Shown in pieces: positions 23,682 to 30,417 of a stretch of DNA of 32,000 nucleotides. Made by a program: the position numbers and the translations under genes. Source of the DNA: Opitutales bacterium (lineage in GTDB: Bacteria > Verrucomicrobiota > Verrucomicrobiia > Opitutales > PNEW01); assembly GCA_965219535.1 (NCBI GenBank), contig CBDCNV010000001.1:630001-662000 (forward strand). The letters run 5' to 3'. The notes beneath the pieces were generated by a model that was not told the DNA's origin, searched no databases, and worked only from the letters and a program-made list of their open reading frames with translations. Numbering within the stretch: position 1 is the first letter of the stretch; every line of letters begins with the position of its first letter.

Positions 23682-23759
23682 CCTGACCTGTCCCCGTAAA
23701 ACTGAACCAGTTGCAAAGTTAGTCTGGGCCAAAAGAAAGGAGAGAGGAGACAGGTCAGG
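23682..23759. repeat. 78-bp foldback element whose loop carries an IS3-end-like sequence
   Basis: The 11-bp arm CCTGACCTGTC (23682-23692) and GACAGGTCAGG (23749-23759) are exact reverse complements. Loop segment 23695-23741 aligns at about 80 percent by eye with the subterminal left end of the adjacent IS (23826-23872), including AAAGTTAGTCTGGG. Confidence 0.6.
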
Positions 23760-23793: not shown

Positions 23794-23813
23794 TTAAAAT
23801 ACGCTTGATAAAT
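23794..23813 (-). other. Detached native 3' end (LSSVF-stop) of the cytochrome-porin gene, separated from the gene by the IS insertion
   Basis: Joining 23813 to 25105 (removing the IS and one AAAT copy) makes the reverse-strand frame read ...GAC CTA TTC GTT ATT GAT TTA TCA AGC GTA TTT TAA, which is DLFVIDLSSVF*. Confidence 0.7.
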
Positions 23814-23880
23814 TGGTCGTGACCACGAAAACTGGTCCACTAGAAAAGTTAGTCTGGGACACCTAGAAAGGACTCAGACA

Positions 23881-25092
23881 ATGAAAGGCAAAAGATATAC
23901 AACCGAAGAGAAGATACGGATGCTGCGGCAGGCAGACAAAGGGAAAACGATCCTGGAAGTATGCCGCGAGAACAACATAAGCGAACAGACCTTCCACCGC
24001 TGGAAACGTGAACTTGGGATGATTGATGTCAACCAGGCCAAGCGGATGAAGGAACTCTTTGAAGGAGAACGCGCGGTTAAAGCGGATGCTGGCGGACAAG
24101 CTGCTGGGGATAGAGATTGTGCAGGAGACGCTCGAAAAAAAACTGTAAGCCCTGGGCACAAGCGGCAAGTGGCAGAGAGACTTGTGGCCCGGGGCCAGTG
24201 TTCGATACGTGGAGCGTGCCGATACTTTCACCTGCACCGCTCCACCTATGCGTATCGGGCGAAGTATCCTGATGCCTGGCTAACGAAACTGAAGGCGGCA
24301 GTAAGGCGGTTATCACGGCAATACGCGAGGTGGGGCTATCCGAAGATCACGAAGCTGTTGAAGGACGAAGGCTGGCAGGTGGGTAAACGGCTCGTGCAAG
24401 GTCTGCGACGTGAACTGGGCCTGGCGATTCCCCCACGCAAGCCAAGACGCCGGCGCAGGGGTGTCTCCACCGGGCTGCCGACGAAGGCCGAACATCCCGA
24501 CCATGTTTGGACCTGGGACTTTATCCACGATAAGACGGTCCGCGGTGGGAATCTCAAAATGCTCACCGTCCTTGACGAGTACACCCGCGAGTGCCGGGTG
24601 ATCCATGTCGATCGCCATATCAATGCGCAGAAGGTGCGCGGGGTCATGCAAAAACTGCTCGACCCTCATGGGCCGCCAAAATATATTCGCAGCGATAACG
24701 GTTCCGAGTTTATTGAAAAGGAATTGCGAACTTGGCTAACTGCGATGAAAATCAATACCCTCTATATCGAACCAGGAAGCCCTTGGCAGAACGGATACAT
24801 CGAATCGTTCCATGCCCGTTTTCGCGAGGAGTGTCTAAATCGTGAACAGCTGTGGACTTTGACCGAAGCCCGCGTGGTGATCGAAGATTGGCGCTGGCTT
24901 TACAATCATGTTCGACCCCACCGCAGCCTCGGCAATATTACTCCACAACGTTTCGCTCAAAACCTCAATACCGAAGGCTCGGGCTCCATTCGGGCTACGC
25001 CCTCATTGCGCCCAAGCCTTGACTTCCTCTACCAACTTAACTTCAACATTAACCTCTCCAGACTAACTCTCTCAGTGGACCAGTTTGTGTAA
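23881..25092 (+). CDS. IS3-family transposase as one uninterrupted 403-codon frame (HTH + scrambled linker + DDE/RNase-H OrfB)
   Basis: N-terminal HTH (RYTTEEKIRMLRQADKGKTILEVCRENNISEQTFHRWKRE). OrfB motifs WTWDFIH, LTVLDEYTRE, IRSDNGSEF, PGSPWQNGYIESFH, YNHVRPHRSLG. The expected leucine zipper (KENARLKRMLADKLLGIEIVQETLEKKL*) is only readable in the +1 frame at 24062-24148. Confidence 0.85.
   Translation: MKGKRYTTEEKIRMLRQADKGKTILEVCRENNISEQTFHRWKRELGMIDVNQAKRMKELFEGERAVKADAGGQAAGDRDCAGDARKKTVSPGHKRQVAERLVARGQCSIRGACRYFHLHRSTYAYRAKYPDAWLTKLKAAVRRLSRQYARWGYPKITKLLKDEGWQVGKRLVQGLRRELGLAIPPRKPRRRRRGVSTGLPTKAEHPDHVWTWDFIHDKTVRGGNLKMLTVLDEYTRECRVIHVDRHINAQKVRGVMQKLLDPHGPPKYIRSDNGSEFIEKELRTWLTAMKINTLYIEPGSPWQNGYIESFHARFREECLNREQLWTLTEARVVIEDWRWLYNHVRPHRSLGNITPQRFAQNLNTEGSGSIRATPSLRPSLDFLYQLNFNINLSRLTLSVDQFV
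24135..24195 (+). promoter_or_regulatory. Programmed -1 ribosomal frameshift signal of the IS (A8 slippery run + stem-loop)
   Basis: AAAAAAAA at 24135-24142 (A AAA AAA in the zipper frame) and an orfA-frame TAA at 24146-24148. An approximately 14-bp stem follows (24149-24162 pairing with 24181-24195, one bulged G) 6 nt after the run. Confidence 0.6.
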
Positions 25093-26245
25093 CCCGACCA
25101 AAATCAATAACGAATAGGTCGTTGTTATCCTGGGCGCGATATTGAATCTGTAAAAAAAATGAATATTTCTGATTTGGCCCGCTTATTGTAAAATAAGGAA
25201 TATAGGCGGCTTCGCTCCTGGAATTTGTTACCTTTTCAACTCGCATACCTACTCCAGGCCTGATTTTATCCCACCATCTTGGTACATACTCTACCTCAAG
25301 ACTGTAGCGCATACGCGCCTCGCTTGACTCTGTATCGTCACCCCCGATTCCGGCGGTCACATACCAATCACCTGTGTTATAGCTTCCTAGGGCTGTAGCA
25401 AGCCAGCGATCGTCATCGACGAATGCATGTCCCCCAATTAAACTCATTCCTGTTTTATAATATGTTTCCAGGAACACGCCTTTGGGGCTACCTTCAAATT
25501 CGAAACTTGCAGTATCTTTCGCTTCGTCATTCAACGGAATAGAAAATTCTCCTGGAAATGGCACCGTTAATCCAAGAAAGAGCCTTTCAGATGCCGTTTT
25601 CCCCTTCAGTGCTTGATATTGCAAAGCTATACTTGGAGAACGCCCTGTGGGAGAAAACGATCTAAGCCCTTGAATACGTGAATCTGCTGTTTGATCGCCC
25701 GGTAAAGAATTTTTAAATAGAGTCGGTTCGCTAGGAGAGAGTCTCAAAGAGACATCTACCTGATTAAGCGCGCGAAACTGTCCTACTTTAAACGCCCATT
25801 GATCATCGATAGTCCATTGTACGAACAAGTCTTCAAATCGACCACTTCGGCTTTTGTGGCTTCCATCTGAATTTAAGCTTTCACTCACTACACGTGATTC
25901 TACAAAATAGGATAGCGGGGTGTTTCCAATTTTTCCGCCACTGATTAGCTCGACCTTAGGAAGAAAGAAATCTTCTACATTATTCTCTATCTTATCTTCA
26001 TATCGGGTGGTAAGCCAAACTGCTAGTGGAATGGTTTTCTTTTCTCCTTTACCAACCAAATCTGGCGCCTTATAACCTCGCGCTCGAAAATTTTCTCCCG
26101 TAAGGTTTAACTTTGGGACGGATGAGTGGCATTTAATGCAACTATTTTGCGTCATTCGGGCAAATTGCGGTGTTGCATATGCTGAATGCAAAAAAAACAA
26201 CACCCCGATTATCCCAAGTAATCTAGTCAAATTCCGGTTTTTCAT
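25049..26245 (-). CDS. Fused monoheme cytochrome c / outer-membrane beta-barrel protein (Cyc2-like), 3' end replaced by IS-derived codons
   Basis: Signal peptide (cleavage after ...HSAYA), ATPQFARMTQNSCIKCHSSVPKL (CxxCH followed by P-x-L), then about 350 aa of alternating-polarity, Gly/aromatic-rich barrel-like sequence. The last 17 residues (FGRVTQTGPLRELVWRG) are encoded by the IS right end and the duplicated target. Confidence 0.6.
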   Translation of the reverse strand: MKNRNLTRLLGIIGVLFFLHSAYATPQFARMTQNSCIKCHSSVPKLNLTGENFRARGYKAPDLVGKGEKKTIPLAVWLTTRYEDKIENNVEDFFLPKVELISGGKIGNTPLSYFVESRVVSESLNSDGSHKSRSGRFEDLFVQWTIDDQWAFKVGQFRALNQVDVSLRLSPSEPTLFKNSLPGDQTADSRIQGLRSFSPTGRSPSIALQYQALKGKTASERLFLGLTVPFPGEFSIPLNDEAKDTASFEFEGSPKGVFLETYYKTGMSLIGGHAFVDDDRWLATALGSYNTGDWYVTAGIGGDDTESSEARMRYSLEVEYVPRWWDKIRPGVGMRVEKVTNSRSEAAYIPYFTISGPNQKYSFFLQIQYRAQDNNDLFVIDFGRVTQTGPLRELVWRG

Positions 26246-26382
26246 AGCTGGTTTAAGTTAGTATCTATCGAGTTAAGCGGTTTAATTAGGTTCTAGGGCC
26301 AGGCCAAAGTTTTCAGTAGACACAATACAAGGAATATTTTTGATATATCAAACAAAAAATCATGAATTATCAAAATTGTTGA

Positions 26383-26695
26383 TCTCGTTGCCTCCGGATG
26401 CATCCCGAGTGCCTAAACTGTGAGAAACTATGTACTCTGACCGAAGCGTGCTTGGTCATCGAGGACCGGCACTGGAAATACAACCATTTGCACCTTTACA
26501 GCTCTCTTGGTTATCTCATGCTCATCCAGTTTGCTCAGAATGAAATAACAACCAGCTAACAAAATGACTAAGATCTGGGCTCCAGTCGGCTACGCCCTCA
26601 CTTCGCCAAGATCTCTCCTATACATCAATCCTAAAACCATTAACACCCGGTAACTCTCTCACTTAAAAATTGGTACGAAAAACGGGGGCCGATCA
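26383..26695 (+). pseudogene. Relic of a second, diverged IS3-family element: the last ~58 transposase codons plus the right terminal IR
   Basis: 26383-26559 reads SRCLRMHPECLNCEKLCTLTEACLVIEDRHWKYNHLHLYSSLGYLMLIQFAQNEITTS*. Roughly half of these residues match ...SFHARFREECLNREQLWTLTEARVVIEDWRWLYNHVRPHRSLGNITPQRFAQN of the intact copy. The downstream DNA parallels the intact right end (GGCTACGCCCTCA, TAACTCTCTCA) and ends ...GATCA at 26695. A stop lies immediately upstream. Confidence 0.75.
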
Positions 26696-27009: not shown

Positions 27010-29421
27010 GTGCCATTTAAAAACAGTGTATTGGCAGCGCCAACCAGTCTTATTCTAGGATTTTCTTATCTTTTCTTTATAAATTCTCCTGGACTTGCCC
27101 AGACCAGTCTGAGTCCTGAGGAGACGGCTGAGTCAGTCAATATAGTTGTTTCCAAACCAGCGGTTGAAGAAAAAATATTGGTTAATTTTCCGGCCGTGAG
27201 TGGAGGTTTGGCTCCCAACCCACGTGACCGCCAACGCGTGCTGCAGAAGCAGAATCCAATGGCATCCGAATACCAATCAGTGGGAGGCGTTGGGGTGGTG
27301 TCATTTGCCAACGATGACGCTGAAGGGGTAAATTATCATGGCAAATTACCCTCTGGGGGAAAACTGGAGGGTCCAACCTCACGCATTAGAAGTGAAGCCT
27401 CTTATCACTATGGAGAACTGTCTGACTCTGGATTGTGGCAGGGTTACGTCTCTGTGGATCAGATATTCGGAAAAGACAACCGTTGGGCAATCTCGTTTTT
27501 ATTGGATACCCAGGCAGCGGAACTTGCCTTTGAGCGTATTTTTACGCGATGGGGGACTGTCGAATTAGAGGATGGAACCGAGCAGAATGTGATTGAAAGA
27601 CTGAATACTGGAATGCGTACCGTTCATTCACGACGCAAAAGCTTTAGAGGAGTAATTGAACGAGCATTGAGCGATAACCATACCCTCTATTTCAAAACTG
27701 CACTAAGACAAACCGAAGATAGTGACATTTCGCAACGGCTGGAAATGCGGTTTTCTGATGGTGAATACGAAGACATATCAGATTTATCTGCTTTTTCCCG
27801 CGGGGCGAGCGTGAAACGTGAAATGCGTGATGAACCTGAGCGCACGGATATCTACCGCTTCGAGGCCGGCGGCAAAATTGAAGCCGAAGACTGGGGCTTG
27901 GGGTATGGTATGTATTATTCAGACTACGAGCGCGGCCGCCCTGAACTTTTCAAGGTCGAATTTCGACGCGAGGGTGTGGATTTGTCTTACAATCGAGAAG
28001 ATATCCTCTTTCCTCAAGTTACTAATCATAGTGATATAGATATTTATGACCCGGACGAAATGCCCTTTCGCGAAATGTGCGATCGAAGTTCGCTTACAGT
28101 GGATGAAGATTATGCCGGAGATATTCATTTCCATAAACGGTTTAATTTCTCAAAAACGGAAATGGAAATCTTTGCCGGTAGTCTCTACCGGCAAAAAGAA
28201 CGAACAAGTCGAGACGAAAGGTTTATTTATGAAATTTATAATGGCACTTACCTCTTAAGCGATTCGGTAGTTACAGAAGAACCGGATTTGGTTGCCGAAG
28301 ACCACTATCGGTTGGGGAGGGGAGCAGACCCCTCTCTTTCTCGCACGTTTTTCGCGGATAACTTCGATAATTATGAATTGGATATTAGTCGTACCCATAT
28401 CGAAAGTGATCCCAATAATTTCAGGTCTTTCGAATCGGTACAGAGCTTTTATTTGATGCAGCGATTTAAGGCTCCAAAATGGTCTTTAAATGCCGGACTT
28501 CGCTTTGAGAAAACGCAAATTGAAACCGATGGCAATACGGTAATTACCGAAGAAGTGGACGATGAAGATGTCTACGTGGAAACGATTCCCGTCTCGAATG
28601 TGAATGAATATGATAATACCTATTTTGCGCTGGAATTTGTTTATTTACTGAACGAAAAGATTAATTTGAGAGCCGCTGCTTTCGAAACCCTGGCGCGGCC
28701 CAATTACTTTGATCTTGTTCCCTATCGGCAAATATTTAGCAGCAGTGAATTCATCCGAGAGGGCAATCCGAACTTGAAGTCAACGGAATATACAAATTTT
28801 ATCGTGACCGCAGATGTCAGAAACCCCTGGACCGGTAATTTTTCTGCGGCATGGTATTACAAGGATATCAAGAATTATTTCTTTCAAGGTGAATTTTTAG
28901 TTGAAGGAGGAACCCTCGATGGCTTCAAGTTCAGGCGGCCGGAAAATGGGGAAGAAGCTCAATTGTGGGGATTGGAATTCGGTTGGAACCGAAATGTTCC
29001 TTTATTTCCTCAGTCATTGGGTAGAGCGACGGCCACTGTTTTTTACATTTATTCTGATTCCCAGGCATTTACCGTTAAGCGACCGGGTGAAACTCTGCTT
29101 TTGCCGGAACGGGCAGCACATATGCTGGATGTTGCACTGCTCAATGAATTTGGAAAATTTAAGACTCGCCTCAGTTTAAGTTTTCAAAGCCGCTCGCTTG
29201 ATAATGTAGCTGAAACGATCAATGCCGATGAATATCTCGATCATGAGACCATTATAAATTTTTCAACGAAGTATCAGTTTCATCCCAATATGAAATTGTT
29301 CGCAGACTTTTTTAATATCACGAGTCAGGTGCAGAACAGTTTAGAAGGCGCTACTCTGCGCCCCTCTGATAGGGTTTTCAGTTCCTGGAGAGCACGTGTA
29401 GGTATAAATATTACCCTCTAA
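27010..29421 (+). CDS. TonB-dependent-receptor-like outer-membrane beta-barrel (803 aa), plug domain not recognisable
   Basis: Signal peptide ending ...SPGLAQ. TonB-box-like ESVNIVVS. Barrel motifs such as RPNYFDLVPY and REGNPNLKSTEYTNF. GTG start is uncertain. Confidence 0.6.
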   Translation: MPFKNSVLAAPTSLILGFSYLFFINSPGLAQTSLSPEETAESVNIVVSKPAVEEKILVNFPAVSGGLAPNPRDRQRVLQKQNPMASEYQSVGGVGVVSFANDDAEGVNYHGKLPSGGKLEGPTSRIRSEASYHYGELSDSGLWQGYVSVDQIFGKDNRWAISFLLDTQAAELAFERIFTRWGTVELEDGTEQNVIERLNTGMRTVHSRRKSFRGVIERALSDNHTLYFKTALRQTEDSDISQRLEMRFSDGEYEDISDLSAFSRGASVKREMRDEPERTDIYRFEAGGKIEAEDWGLGYGMYYSDYERGRPELFKVEFRREGVDLSYNREDILFPQVTNHSDIDIYDPDEMPFREMCDRSSLTVDEDYAGDIHFHKRFNFSKTEMEIFAGSLYRQKERTSRDERFIYEIYNGTYLLSDSVVTEEPDLVAEDHYRLGRGADPSLSRTFFADNFDNYELDISRTHIESDPNNFRSFESVQSFYLMQRFKAPKWSLNAGLRFEKTQIETDGNTVITEEVDDEDVYVETIPVSNVNEYDNTYFALEFVYLLNEKINLRAAAFETLARPNYFDLVPYRQIFSSSEFIREGNPNLKSTEYTNFIVTADVRNPWTGNFSAAWYYKDIKNYFFQGEFLVEGGTLDGFKFRRPENGEEAQLWGLEFGWNRNVPLFPQSLGRATATVFYIYSDSQAFTVKRPGETLLLPERAAHMLDVALLNEFGKFKTRLSLSFQSRSLDNVAETINADEYLDHETIINFSTKYQFHPNMKLFADFFNITSQVQNSLEGATLRPSDRVFSSWRARVGINITL

Positions 29422-29904: not shown

Positions 29905-30417
29905 TTAATCCAAGCTATTAAGTGCCGCCAGGGCATCCTGTGCTTGAGTAACAGGTTGAGCTTCTAGATCACGCCAGACGATTATGCCACCCATTATGAG
30001 GAATGTCTGACGTTTCGCCTTACCATTATTACGCGGGACGCCAAAAGCCTCGATTACATTTCCTTCATAATCAGCAAGCAAGGTGAAAGGAAGCTGAAAC
30101 TTATCTTTAAATGCCTTTTGTTCTTCAGGTGTATCCGCGCTAACCCCTATAACTCTTATCCCTGCAGTCTGTAGCTTTTCGTAGGCGTCACGCAGGTTGC
30201 ACGATTGAGCGGTGCAACCTGGAGTATCTGCTTTGGGGTAAAAATATACGAGCGTGGGTCCTTCACTGTAAACTTCAGAAAGGTTAAGCGGATCGCCGGT
30301 CTCTGTTATTGTTGCAATCCCCGGTGCATTATCGCCAACGGCGAGTGGGCCTGCGTCTTCATTAGCGGATGACATCGGTAAGATTATAAATAGAAGAATT
30401 TTATGTAGAACAAGCAT
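29905..30417 (-). CDS. bcp: Secreted Bcp-type peroxiredoxin (AhpC/TSA family)
   Basis: N-terminal signal-like segment. LVYFYPKADTPGCTAQSC peroxidatic-cysteine motif. Confidence 0.8.
   Translation of the reverse strand: MLVLHKILLFIILPMSSANEDAGPLAVGDNAPGIATITETGDPLNLSEVYSEGPTLVYFYPKADTPGCTAQSCNLRDAYEKLQTAGIRVIGVSADTPEEQKAFKDKFQLPFTLLADYEGNVIEAFGVPRNNGKAKRQTFLIMGGIIVWRDLEAQPVTQAQDALAALNSLD

Follow-up and report, generated by a model that had tools for sequence, protein, structure and literature searches.

The locus described here lies in a 32,000-nucleotide stretch of DNA (the window) from an Opitutales bacterium (Verrucomicrobiota), which corresponds to positions 630,001 to 662,000 of contig CBDCNV010000001.1 in assembly GCA_965219535.1. 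The reverse strand of the window contains an open reading frame (ORF) at 25049..26245, which encodes 398 amino acids as it stands and has lost its native 3' end to an insertion sequence (IS). A first-pass annotation made from the sequence alone had called it a Cyc2-type fused monoheme cytochrome-porin gene surrounded by IS material. Its motifs, the length of the product, a predicted 16-strand barrel and profile homology to Zetaproteobacteria Cyc2 support this assignment, and we therefore treat the product as a fused monoheme cytochrome c-porin of the Cyc2 family.

The native part of the gene (25101..26245, reverse strand) comprises codons 1-381 and the first part of codon 382. It begins with a Sec signal peptide (26174-26245, reverse strand) that was recognized by inspection from a basic n-region (K2, R4, R8), the hydrophobic core LLGIIGVLFFL and a cleavage site between AYA and T; in the structural model described below, residues 3-19 of this segment form a helix. 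The product after the signal peptide reads TPQFARMTQNSCIKCHSSVPKLNLTGENF. Residues 24-53 (ATPQFARMTQNSCIKCHSSVPKLNLTGENF) are letter for letter those that the first-pass annotation had given as the mature N-terminus, except that the leading alanine, judged from the sequence, probably still closes the signal peptide, so that the mature protein would start with TPQFAR and not with ATPQFAR. The characteristic residues are arranged as TPQFARMT-QNS-CIKCH-SSV-PKL and are followed by the barrel. On the reverse strand, this AxPxFAR...CxxCH...PxL block occupies 26108-26176, with CIKCH (residues 36-40) at 26126-26140, and the barrel is encoded from about 26032 downwards. CIKCH is the sole CxxCH in the protein, and no other CxxCH-bearing ORF was found in the window.

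Cyc2 proteins have been defined by a signal peptide, a single CxxCH motif, an upstream AXPXFAR[Q/K][T/Y] motif, a PXL motif just downstream, a length of at least 365 amino acids and a fused 16-strand porin resembling OprO/OprP (Keffer et al. 2021; PMC8406198). In the Opitutales protein, the upstream motif appears as ATPQFARMT, with methionine at the Q/K position as the one deviation; within the clade, this position is occupied by K, S, Q, E and other residues. The spacing between ATPQFARMT and CxxCH is identical to that in Zetaproteobacteria Cyc2, and the downstream motif is present as CH-SSV-PKL, with the proline at +4. The length is 386 amino acids after reconstruction and 398 amino acids as encoded. 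Structural models were made with AlphaFold2 from the 398-residue ORF of the window and from the intact orthologue P0002. With predicted local distance difference test (pLDDT) values of 89.7 and 91.0 and a predicted template modeling score of 0.86, they show a small, helical domain at the N-terminus and then 16 strands, which bears out the barrel suspected in the first-pass annotation. A Foldseek search against the PDB matched the 16-strand porins OmpU, Omp32 and OmpF, with OprO at rank 41. The barrel fold is shared with these porins and with OprO/OprP (E-values down to 3e-10, template modeling score about 0.5), whereas identity is only 9-14% and the porins lack an N-terminal heme domain. The Pfam family Porin_O_P scored 17 bits, under its cut-off of 20.9, which fits the low sequence but high structural similarity remarked for Cyc2 porins (PMC8406198), and a sequence search against the PDB returned nothing meaningful.

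The link to validated Cyc2 proteins was drawn by profile comparison. The Cluster 1 profile was built from Mariprofundaceae Cyc2 sequences retrieved with the mass-spectrometry (MS/MS) peptides of Cyc2 from Mariprofundus ferrooxydans PV-1 (PMC8406198, Table S1); this search yielded partial Mariprofundaceae homologues, and PV-1 Cyc2 itself is not among the profile sequences. Comparison by hhalign with this Zetaproteobacteria profile gave a probability of 97.7% and an E-value of 2.4e-12 over 132 columns. Pairwise BLASTP against Mariprofundaceae Cyc2 aligned the 33-residue heme region only (E 6e-6).

Homologues of the protein are numerous. A database search recovered, among the candidates, 761 relatives at E <= 0.001, every one of them unnamed or annotated as hypothetical, and an exhaustive profile search with HMMER against 1.84 billion cluster representatives returned 3,540 matches at E <= 0.001, including 61 at E <= 1e-30. 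The gene belongs to a large uncharacterized clade that extends across Verrucomicrobiota, Planctomycetota, Acidobacteriota, Gemmatimonadota and other phyla. Exactly one CxxCH, followed by xxxPxL, was present in 119 of the 120 homologues examined, so that the motif is no chance occurrence. The residues C36, C39, H40, P44 and L46 are invariant in the alignment, while A24, P26, A29 and R30 show a conservation of 90% or more. All 119 CxxCH-bearing members place the proline at +4 after CH, and the same spacing occurs in all distant representatives in which PxL was found. Distant matches of the profile search read, for example, AIPAFARQTKMSCTACHTTYPRL, which agrees with the published Cyc2 consensus. 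A C-terminal phenylalanine is found in 118 of the 120 homologues. One Planctomycetota homologue (KW1-S15_31, locus L026) is 54% identical, and its gene is cut off by the contig end. A placement of the clade in Cluster 3 is plausible, that is, within a diverse, widespread and functionally uncertain group of Cyc2 proteins that is frequent in sediments and in organisms for which iron oxidation is not known.

The native C-terminus has been disrupted by an intact IS3-family insertion sequence at 23814..25100 (forward strand; 1287 bp), which has TG..CA ends and imperfect terminal inverted repeats of 29 nt that are 86% complementary. Its single transposase ORF (23881-25092, forward strand; 403 amino acids) contains the domains HTH_Tnp_1, HTH_21 and rve, and matches the IS3 transposase model NF033516 of NCBIfam at 249 bits (cut-off 160). 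For an IS3-family transposase, it is atypical in that one unbroken ORF covers the HTH and DDE parts, without an orfA/orfB frameshift. On either side of the element lies a copy of its 4-bp target-site duplication, the direct repeat AAAT (23810-23813 and 25101-25104). An empty site was found by blastn in the public genome most similar to the window, a metagenome-assembled genome of Opitutales (OY829953.1, locus L002), where the window flanks abut with 4 bp in common; these are positions 7142-7145 of L002, which are covered by both flanking alignments and correspond to the right AAAT copy at 25101..25104.

The consequence of the insertion for the reading frame can be followed nucleotide by nucleotide. 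The displaced native 3' end lies at 23794..23813 on the reverse strand (..TTA TCA AGC GTA TTT TAA, encoding LSSVF and the stop codon) and contains the left AAAT copy. In place of native LSSVF, the ORF now runs into an IS-derived tail (25049..25100, reverse strand) that encodes the end of FGRVTQTGPLRELVWRG and a stop codon, and that overlaps the opposite-strand transposase gene at its 3' end. The last five native residues have therefore been exchanged for 17 IS-encoded residues. Removing the element and one repeat copy yields ...NNDLFVIDLSSVF followed by a stop codon, i.e., a protein of 386 amino acids ending in DLSSVF. The intact orthologues P0002 (91% identity) and those of L002 (92%) and L003 (90%) have the same length and the same end, so that the reconstruction to 386 residues ending in SSVF, which had already been proposed, is confirmed by the excised element, the empty site and the orthologues alike.

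The C-terminal phenylalanine of outer-membrane proteins belongs to the β-signal that is recognized by the β-barrel assembly machinery (BAM). As this invariant residue is replaced in the chimeric 398-residue protein, poor or no assembly into the outer membrane, and with it a loss of function, would be expected. In the structural models, the pLDDT drops to 76 and then to 41 at the chimeric C-terminus, compared with 93 for the native last strand in P0002. The guanine-plus-cytosine (GC) content of the element (53.8%) is about 10 points above that of the host (44.3% for the window). Because the element is GC-rich, intact and bordered by a perfect duplication, the insertion looks recent.

The first-pass annotation had also considered a horizontally acquired module in an unexpected lineage. 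The GC content of the Cyc2-like gene (43.1%) is close to that of the window, orthologues at 90-92% identity are present in two other Opitutales genomes, and the flanks of the window, which match those in L002 with a DNA identity of 94-95%, are syntenic there. On these grounds, a recent horizontal acquisition was rejected. Nor is the notion of an unexpected lineage supported, because FeGenie-type surveys have already recorded Cyc2 homologues in Planctomycetota, Acidobacteriota, Gemmatimonadota and many more heterotrophic phyla (PMC9769843, PMC10367259, PMC10732223, PMC8446621).

Comparison with L002 further revealed that the window lacks a block of 4,660 bp (L002 893-5552), which encodes a DtxR/MntR-type regulator, an OprB porin, a two-domain multicopper oxidase, a ZIP-like permease and a type-1 cupredoxin. 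The junction of the missing block (26695/26696) abuts the terminal inverted repeat of an older IS3-family relic upstream of the Cyc2-like gene (26398..26695), which is the signature of an IS-adjacent deletion. This relic is common to the window and L002; it consists of a 3' transposase fragment that is 74% identical to 24829-24909, and its terminal repeat TGATCGG... ends at 26695. Downstream of the gene, a solo IS terminal inverted repeat is found at 23684..23731, exactly where L002 has a degenerate IS3-family element (L002:7225-8536). Even apart from the fresh insertion, both ends of the Cyc2-like gene are thus an IS hot spot, and the expectation of IS material on both sides of a damaged gene proved correct. 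Taken together, the relic, the missing block, the solo repeat and the fresh insertion indicate that the locus was eroded in steps, for which it provides a clean case. The Cyc2-like gene of the window is left without its partners and with a damaged C-terminus, a decaying remnant.

The neighbor on the other side of the relic is a TonB-dependent-receptor-like barrel gene (27010..29421, forward strand), which is divergent from the Cyc2-like gene. The two genes are adjacent, as had been noticed before, but this adjacency is secondary, since it results from the 4.66-kb deletion relative to L002, and a functional link to the receptor was rejected for this reason. The receptor-like protein matches barrel domains only (PF00593, PF14905); TIGR01782 matched under its cut-off and from profile position 144 onwards, and a plug domain was not found at E <= 0.1. 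A separate AhpC/TSA gene (29905-30417) lies two genes further on. The remaining genes of the window are of the housekeeping type and encode a radical-SAM enzyme, LptF/G, MurA-region proteins, aminotransferases, PolX, UvrC, SMC and others. The companion genes of a lithotrophic Cyc2 pathway are absent from the window, in which neither a periplasmic cytochrome nor a cbb3/aa3 terminal oxidase, rusticyanin or carbon-fixation genes were detected; in this respect, the first-pass annotation had judged the surroundings correctly.

The gene neighborhood was analyzed in relatives, and all counts given below refer to the 80 species-level loci that were retrieved. In the Opitutales locus L003, a two-domain multicopper oxidase, a ZIP-like permease, a cupredoxin, the Cyc2-like gene in fourth place and an OprB porin form a run on the same strand, with a DtxR/MntR-type regulator and an ArsP-type permease upstream. 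L002 contains the same genes in a rearranged order. A tight operon of multicopper oxidase, ZIP-like permease, cupredoxin and Cyc2-like gene was found in 8 loci from Opitutales, Planctomycetota and Gemmatimonadota (L003:3222-8911, L002:796-5533, L008:1928-7137, and also L009, L011, L026, L054 and L059), and is usually accompanied by a DtxR/MntR regulator. The ZIP-like permease of this operon has a long N-terminal extension, the cupredoxins contain the type-1 copper motif C..H...M and the multicopper oxidases the copper motifs HxH/HCH. A Tat signal is present on the multicopper oxidase in the one sequence that was checked (L059). These identities were confirmed with Pfam and NCBIfam; the DtxR/MntR-type regulators scored best with MntR models, all under the cut-off.

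Across the whole set, a gene of the DtxR/MntR family occurs near the Cyc2-like gene in 27 of the 80 loci and in 23 of the 39 closest ones, and lies within 300 bp of it in 14 cases. Genomes usually contain one or a few DtxR/MntR-family genes, and the association should therefore be far above chance. A ZnuA/MntC-type binding protein and an ABC transporter ATPase were found in 7-11 loci, and a di-heme peroxidase-like protein in 6. The conserved neighbors of the clade are metal-dependent repressors, metal importers, a multicopper oxidase and a blue-copper protein, and not respiratory components, which points to metal-regulated homeostasis or uptake rather than to energy metabolism. Two further features of single groups were observed. 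The operon oxidase of Planctomycetota carries a C-terminal AhpC/TSA (redoxin) fusion (L008:2439-4127; also L009, L011 and L026). In five loci from Gemmatimonadota, Acidobacteria and Ignavibacteriaceae (L034, L046, L068, L071 and L078), the Cyc2-like gene is followed by the genes for a di-heme oxidoreductase (PF06537) and for an unannotated protein of ~400 amino acids that ends in ...SYF and resembles a further outer-membrane barrel.

Considering all these data, it appears rather probable that the window contains a genuine Cyc2-family gene in an IS-decayed locus, whose ancestral role was in metal homeostasis or acquisition and not in lithotrophy. Within a metal-regulated module, the ancestral protein may have been the site of metal entry and redox exchange in the outer membrane. 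There, Fe(II), or possibly Mn(II), would meet the heme of the porin and exchange electrons with it; the electrons could then pass to the blue-copper protein, from there to the multicopper oxidase and finally to O2, while ZIP or MntABC-type transporters would import the divalent metal and the whole module would be under DtxR/MntR control. Acquisition or homeostasis is favored over lithotrophic growth because this chain lacks a proton-pumping oxidase and is combined with a regulator and with importers. The generalization that the clade as a whole provides the outer-membrane part of a DtxR/MntR-controlled, copper-dependent metal module, often together with MntABC-type importers, is more tentative, and we consider it possible but somewhat short of probable.

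Several observations weigh against this interpretation. The hhalign match to validated Cyc2 does not extend beyond the cytochrome domain and the first strands of the barrel. No metal-related neighbors are present in roughly half of the 80 loci, mostly those from Acidobacteriota and Gemmatimonadota with 37-41% identity, and the proximity of a DtxR/MntR gene separates neither uptake from detoxification nor Fe from Mn. A blue-copper protein beside Cyc2 is also reminiscent of Acidithiobacillus and its energy-conserving rus operon. Outside the 32-kb window, there could be a second, intact copy of the gene or the partner genes, and, as the chimeric C-terminus is still modeled as a strand, the 398-residue protein may have residual function.

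Among the alternatives, a role in Fe(II) or Mn(II) detoxification fares best, although we regard it as unlikely. The Cyc2-like protein, the blue-copper protein and the multicopper oxidase would then oxidize incoming reduced metal at the cell envelope and keep it from the cytoplasm, and the module would be switched on under metal excess. DtxR/MntR regulators, however, classically repress uptake genes when metal is plentiful, and both the ZIP and the MntC/ZnuA-type ABC systems encoded nearby are importers. The operon of multicopper oxidase, cupredoxin and Cyc2 as such would suit detoxification, as would the fusion of some of the oxidases to an AhpC/TSA redoxin domain, and this function has already been suggested for Cyc2 (PMC8446621).

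Less likely still is the proposal of the first-pass annotation that the gene encodes the outer-membrane Fe(II) oxidase of a lithotrophic or extracellular electron-transfer pathway and that it reached an unexpected lineage by horizontal transfer before an IS inserted into it. Membership in the Cyc2 family speaks for it, as validated Cyc2 proteins oxidize Fe(II) (PMC8406198), and in relatives the blue-copper protein adjoins the gene like rusticyanin in the rus operon (PMC10654088), which is why this reading keeps a small probability. The window, however, offers no periplasmic cytochrome, no cbb3/aa3 oxidase, no rusticyanin and no carbon fixation, and the conserved partners in relatives are an O2-reducing multicopper oxidase instead of a proton-pumping oxidase, metal importers and DtxR/MntR regulators. 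The host-like GC content and the Opitutales orthologues, one of them syntenic, argue against its horizontal component, and distant Cyc2 homologues, including much of Clusters 2 and 3, are graded as functionally uncertain in the literature. Finally, an ordinary porin with a fortuitous CxxCH, no heme and no redox role is highly improbable and was rejected: the fold is that of general 16-strand porins and heme attachment is here predicted from the motif, but the CxxCH with its AxPxFAR and PxL flanks shows little or no variation in 119 of 120 homologues, recurs in the distant representatives inspected among the top matches of the exhaustive search, and agrees with that of the heme-stained Cyc2 of PV-1 (peptide QTGAACLSCHFQTFPALNAFGR; PMC8406198).

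Several known systems resemble the clade in part. Cluster 1 Cyc2 proteins, which are known from M. ferrooxydans PV-1 and other Zetaproteobacteria, Gallionellaceae and Chlorobi, share with it the signal peptide, the AxPxFAR-CxxCH-PxL signature and a fused 16-strand porin in a protein of ~400 amino acids. They differ in having four residues between CH and PxL instead of three, in being alignable over the cytochrome domain and the first strands only, and in their gene neighbors, while the clade is found in heterotroph-type hosts. The cyc2-cyc1-cup-coxBACD-rus arrangement of Acidithiobacillus ferrooxidans likewise combines a fused cytochrome-porin with a type-1 blue-copper protein, a likeness in architecture and neighbors. 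In contrast to this operon, the relatives have neither Cyc1 nor an aa3 oxidase, and instead encode the two-domain multicopper oxidase, the ZIP-like permease and DtxR/MntR; the window copy is without any of these partners. A further analogy could be drawn to oxidase-permease iron uptake. Such systems are represented by Fet3-Ftr1 in yeast and EfeUOB in bacteria, and Mn/Fe ABC importers are known to be under MntR/DtxR control. The co-location of a multicopper oxidase, a metal permease and a metal-dependent repressor in the relatives would follow a similar logic, except that the permease is ZIP-like and not of the Ftr1/EfeU type. To our knowledge, none of the known systems of these kinds includes a cytochrome-porin in the outer membrane.

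These considerations matter because cyc2 is widely taken as the marker gene of iron-oxidizing microbes. Cyc2 homologues have been reported repeatedly from heterotroph-type phyla, among them Planctomycetota, Acidobacteriota and Gemmatimonadota, and were interpreted as a potential for iron oxidation (PMC9769843, PMC10367259, PMC10732223), and cyc2 is nearly ubiquitous, often in taxa without known iron oxidation (PMC8446621, PMC8406198). If the proposed role is correct, many of the cyc2 marker genes surveyed in heterotrophs would be genes for metal acquisition or homeostasis and not for lithotrophy, and the iron-oxidation potential of Planctomycetota, Verrucomicrobiota, Acidobacteriota and Gemmatimonadota would be overestimated. 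In addition, a new outer-membrane step in the acquisition or detoxification of Fe or Mn would become testable. The gene of the window adds little in itself, as this copy is damaged and its family turns up almost everywhere in FeGenie-type surveys. The link to a metal-homeostasis neighborhood is the more interesting lead and worth following; targeted full-text searching retrieved no report connecting Cyc2 homologues with DtxR/MntR or with the operon of multicopper oxidase, ZIP-like permease and cupredoxin, which does not prove novelty.

The region upstream of the gene was also inspected. In the upstream regions examined for a DtxR/MntR operator, only a conserved AACCTAA half-site-like element without a convincing palindrome was detected, and a scan for promoters and terminators gave a site count not above chance. 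About 80 bp 5' of the start codon (window 26246-26330; L002:5920-6000; L003:5920-6000) are conserved in the three Opitutales genomes, in which the genes farther upstream differ. The stretch, which includes CTAGAACCTAA, could be a promoter or operator. An AACCTAA element is also seen in L004 and L005, two Planctomycetota loci with 75% identity.

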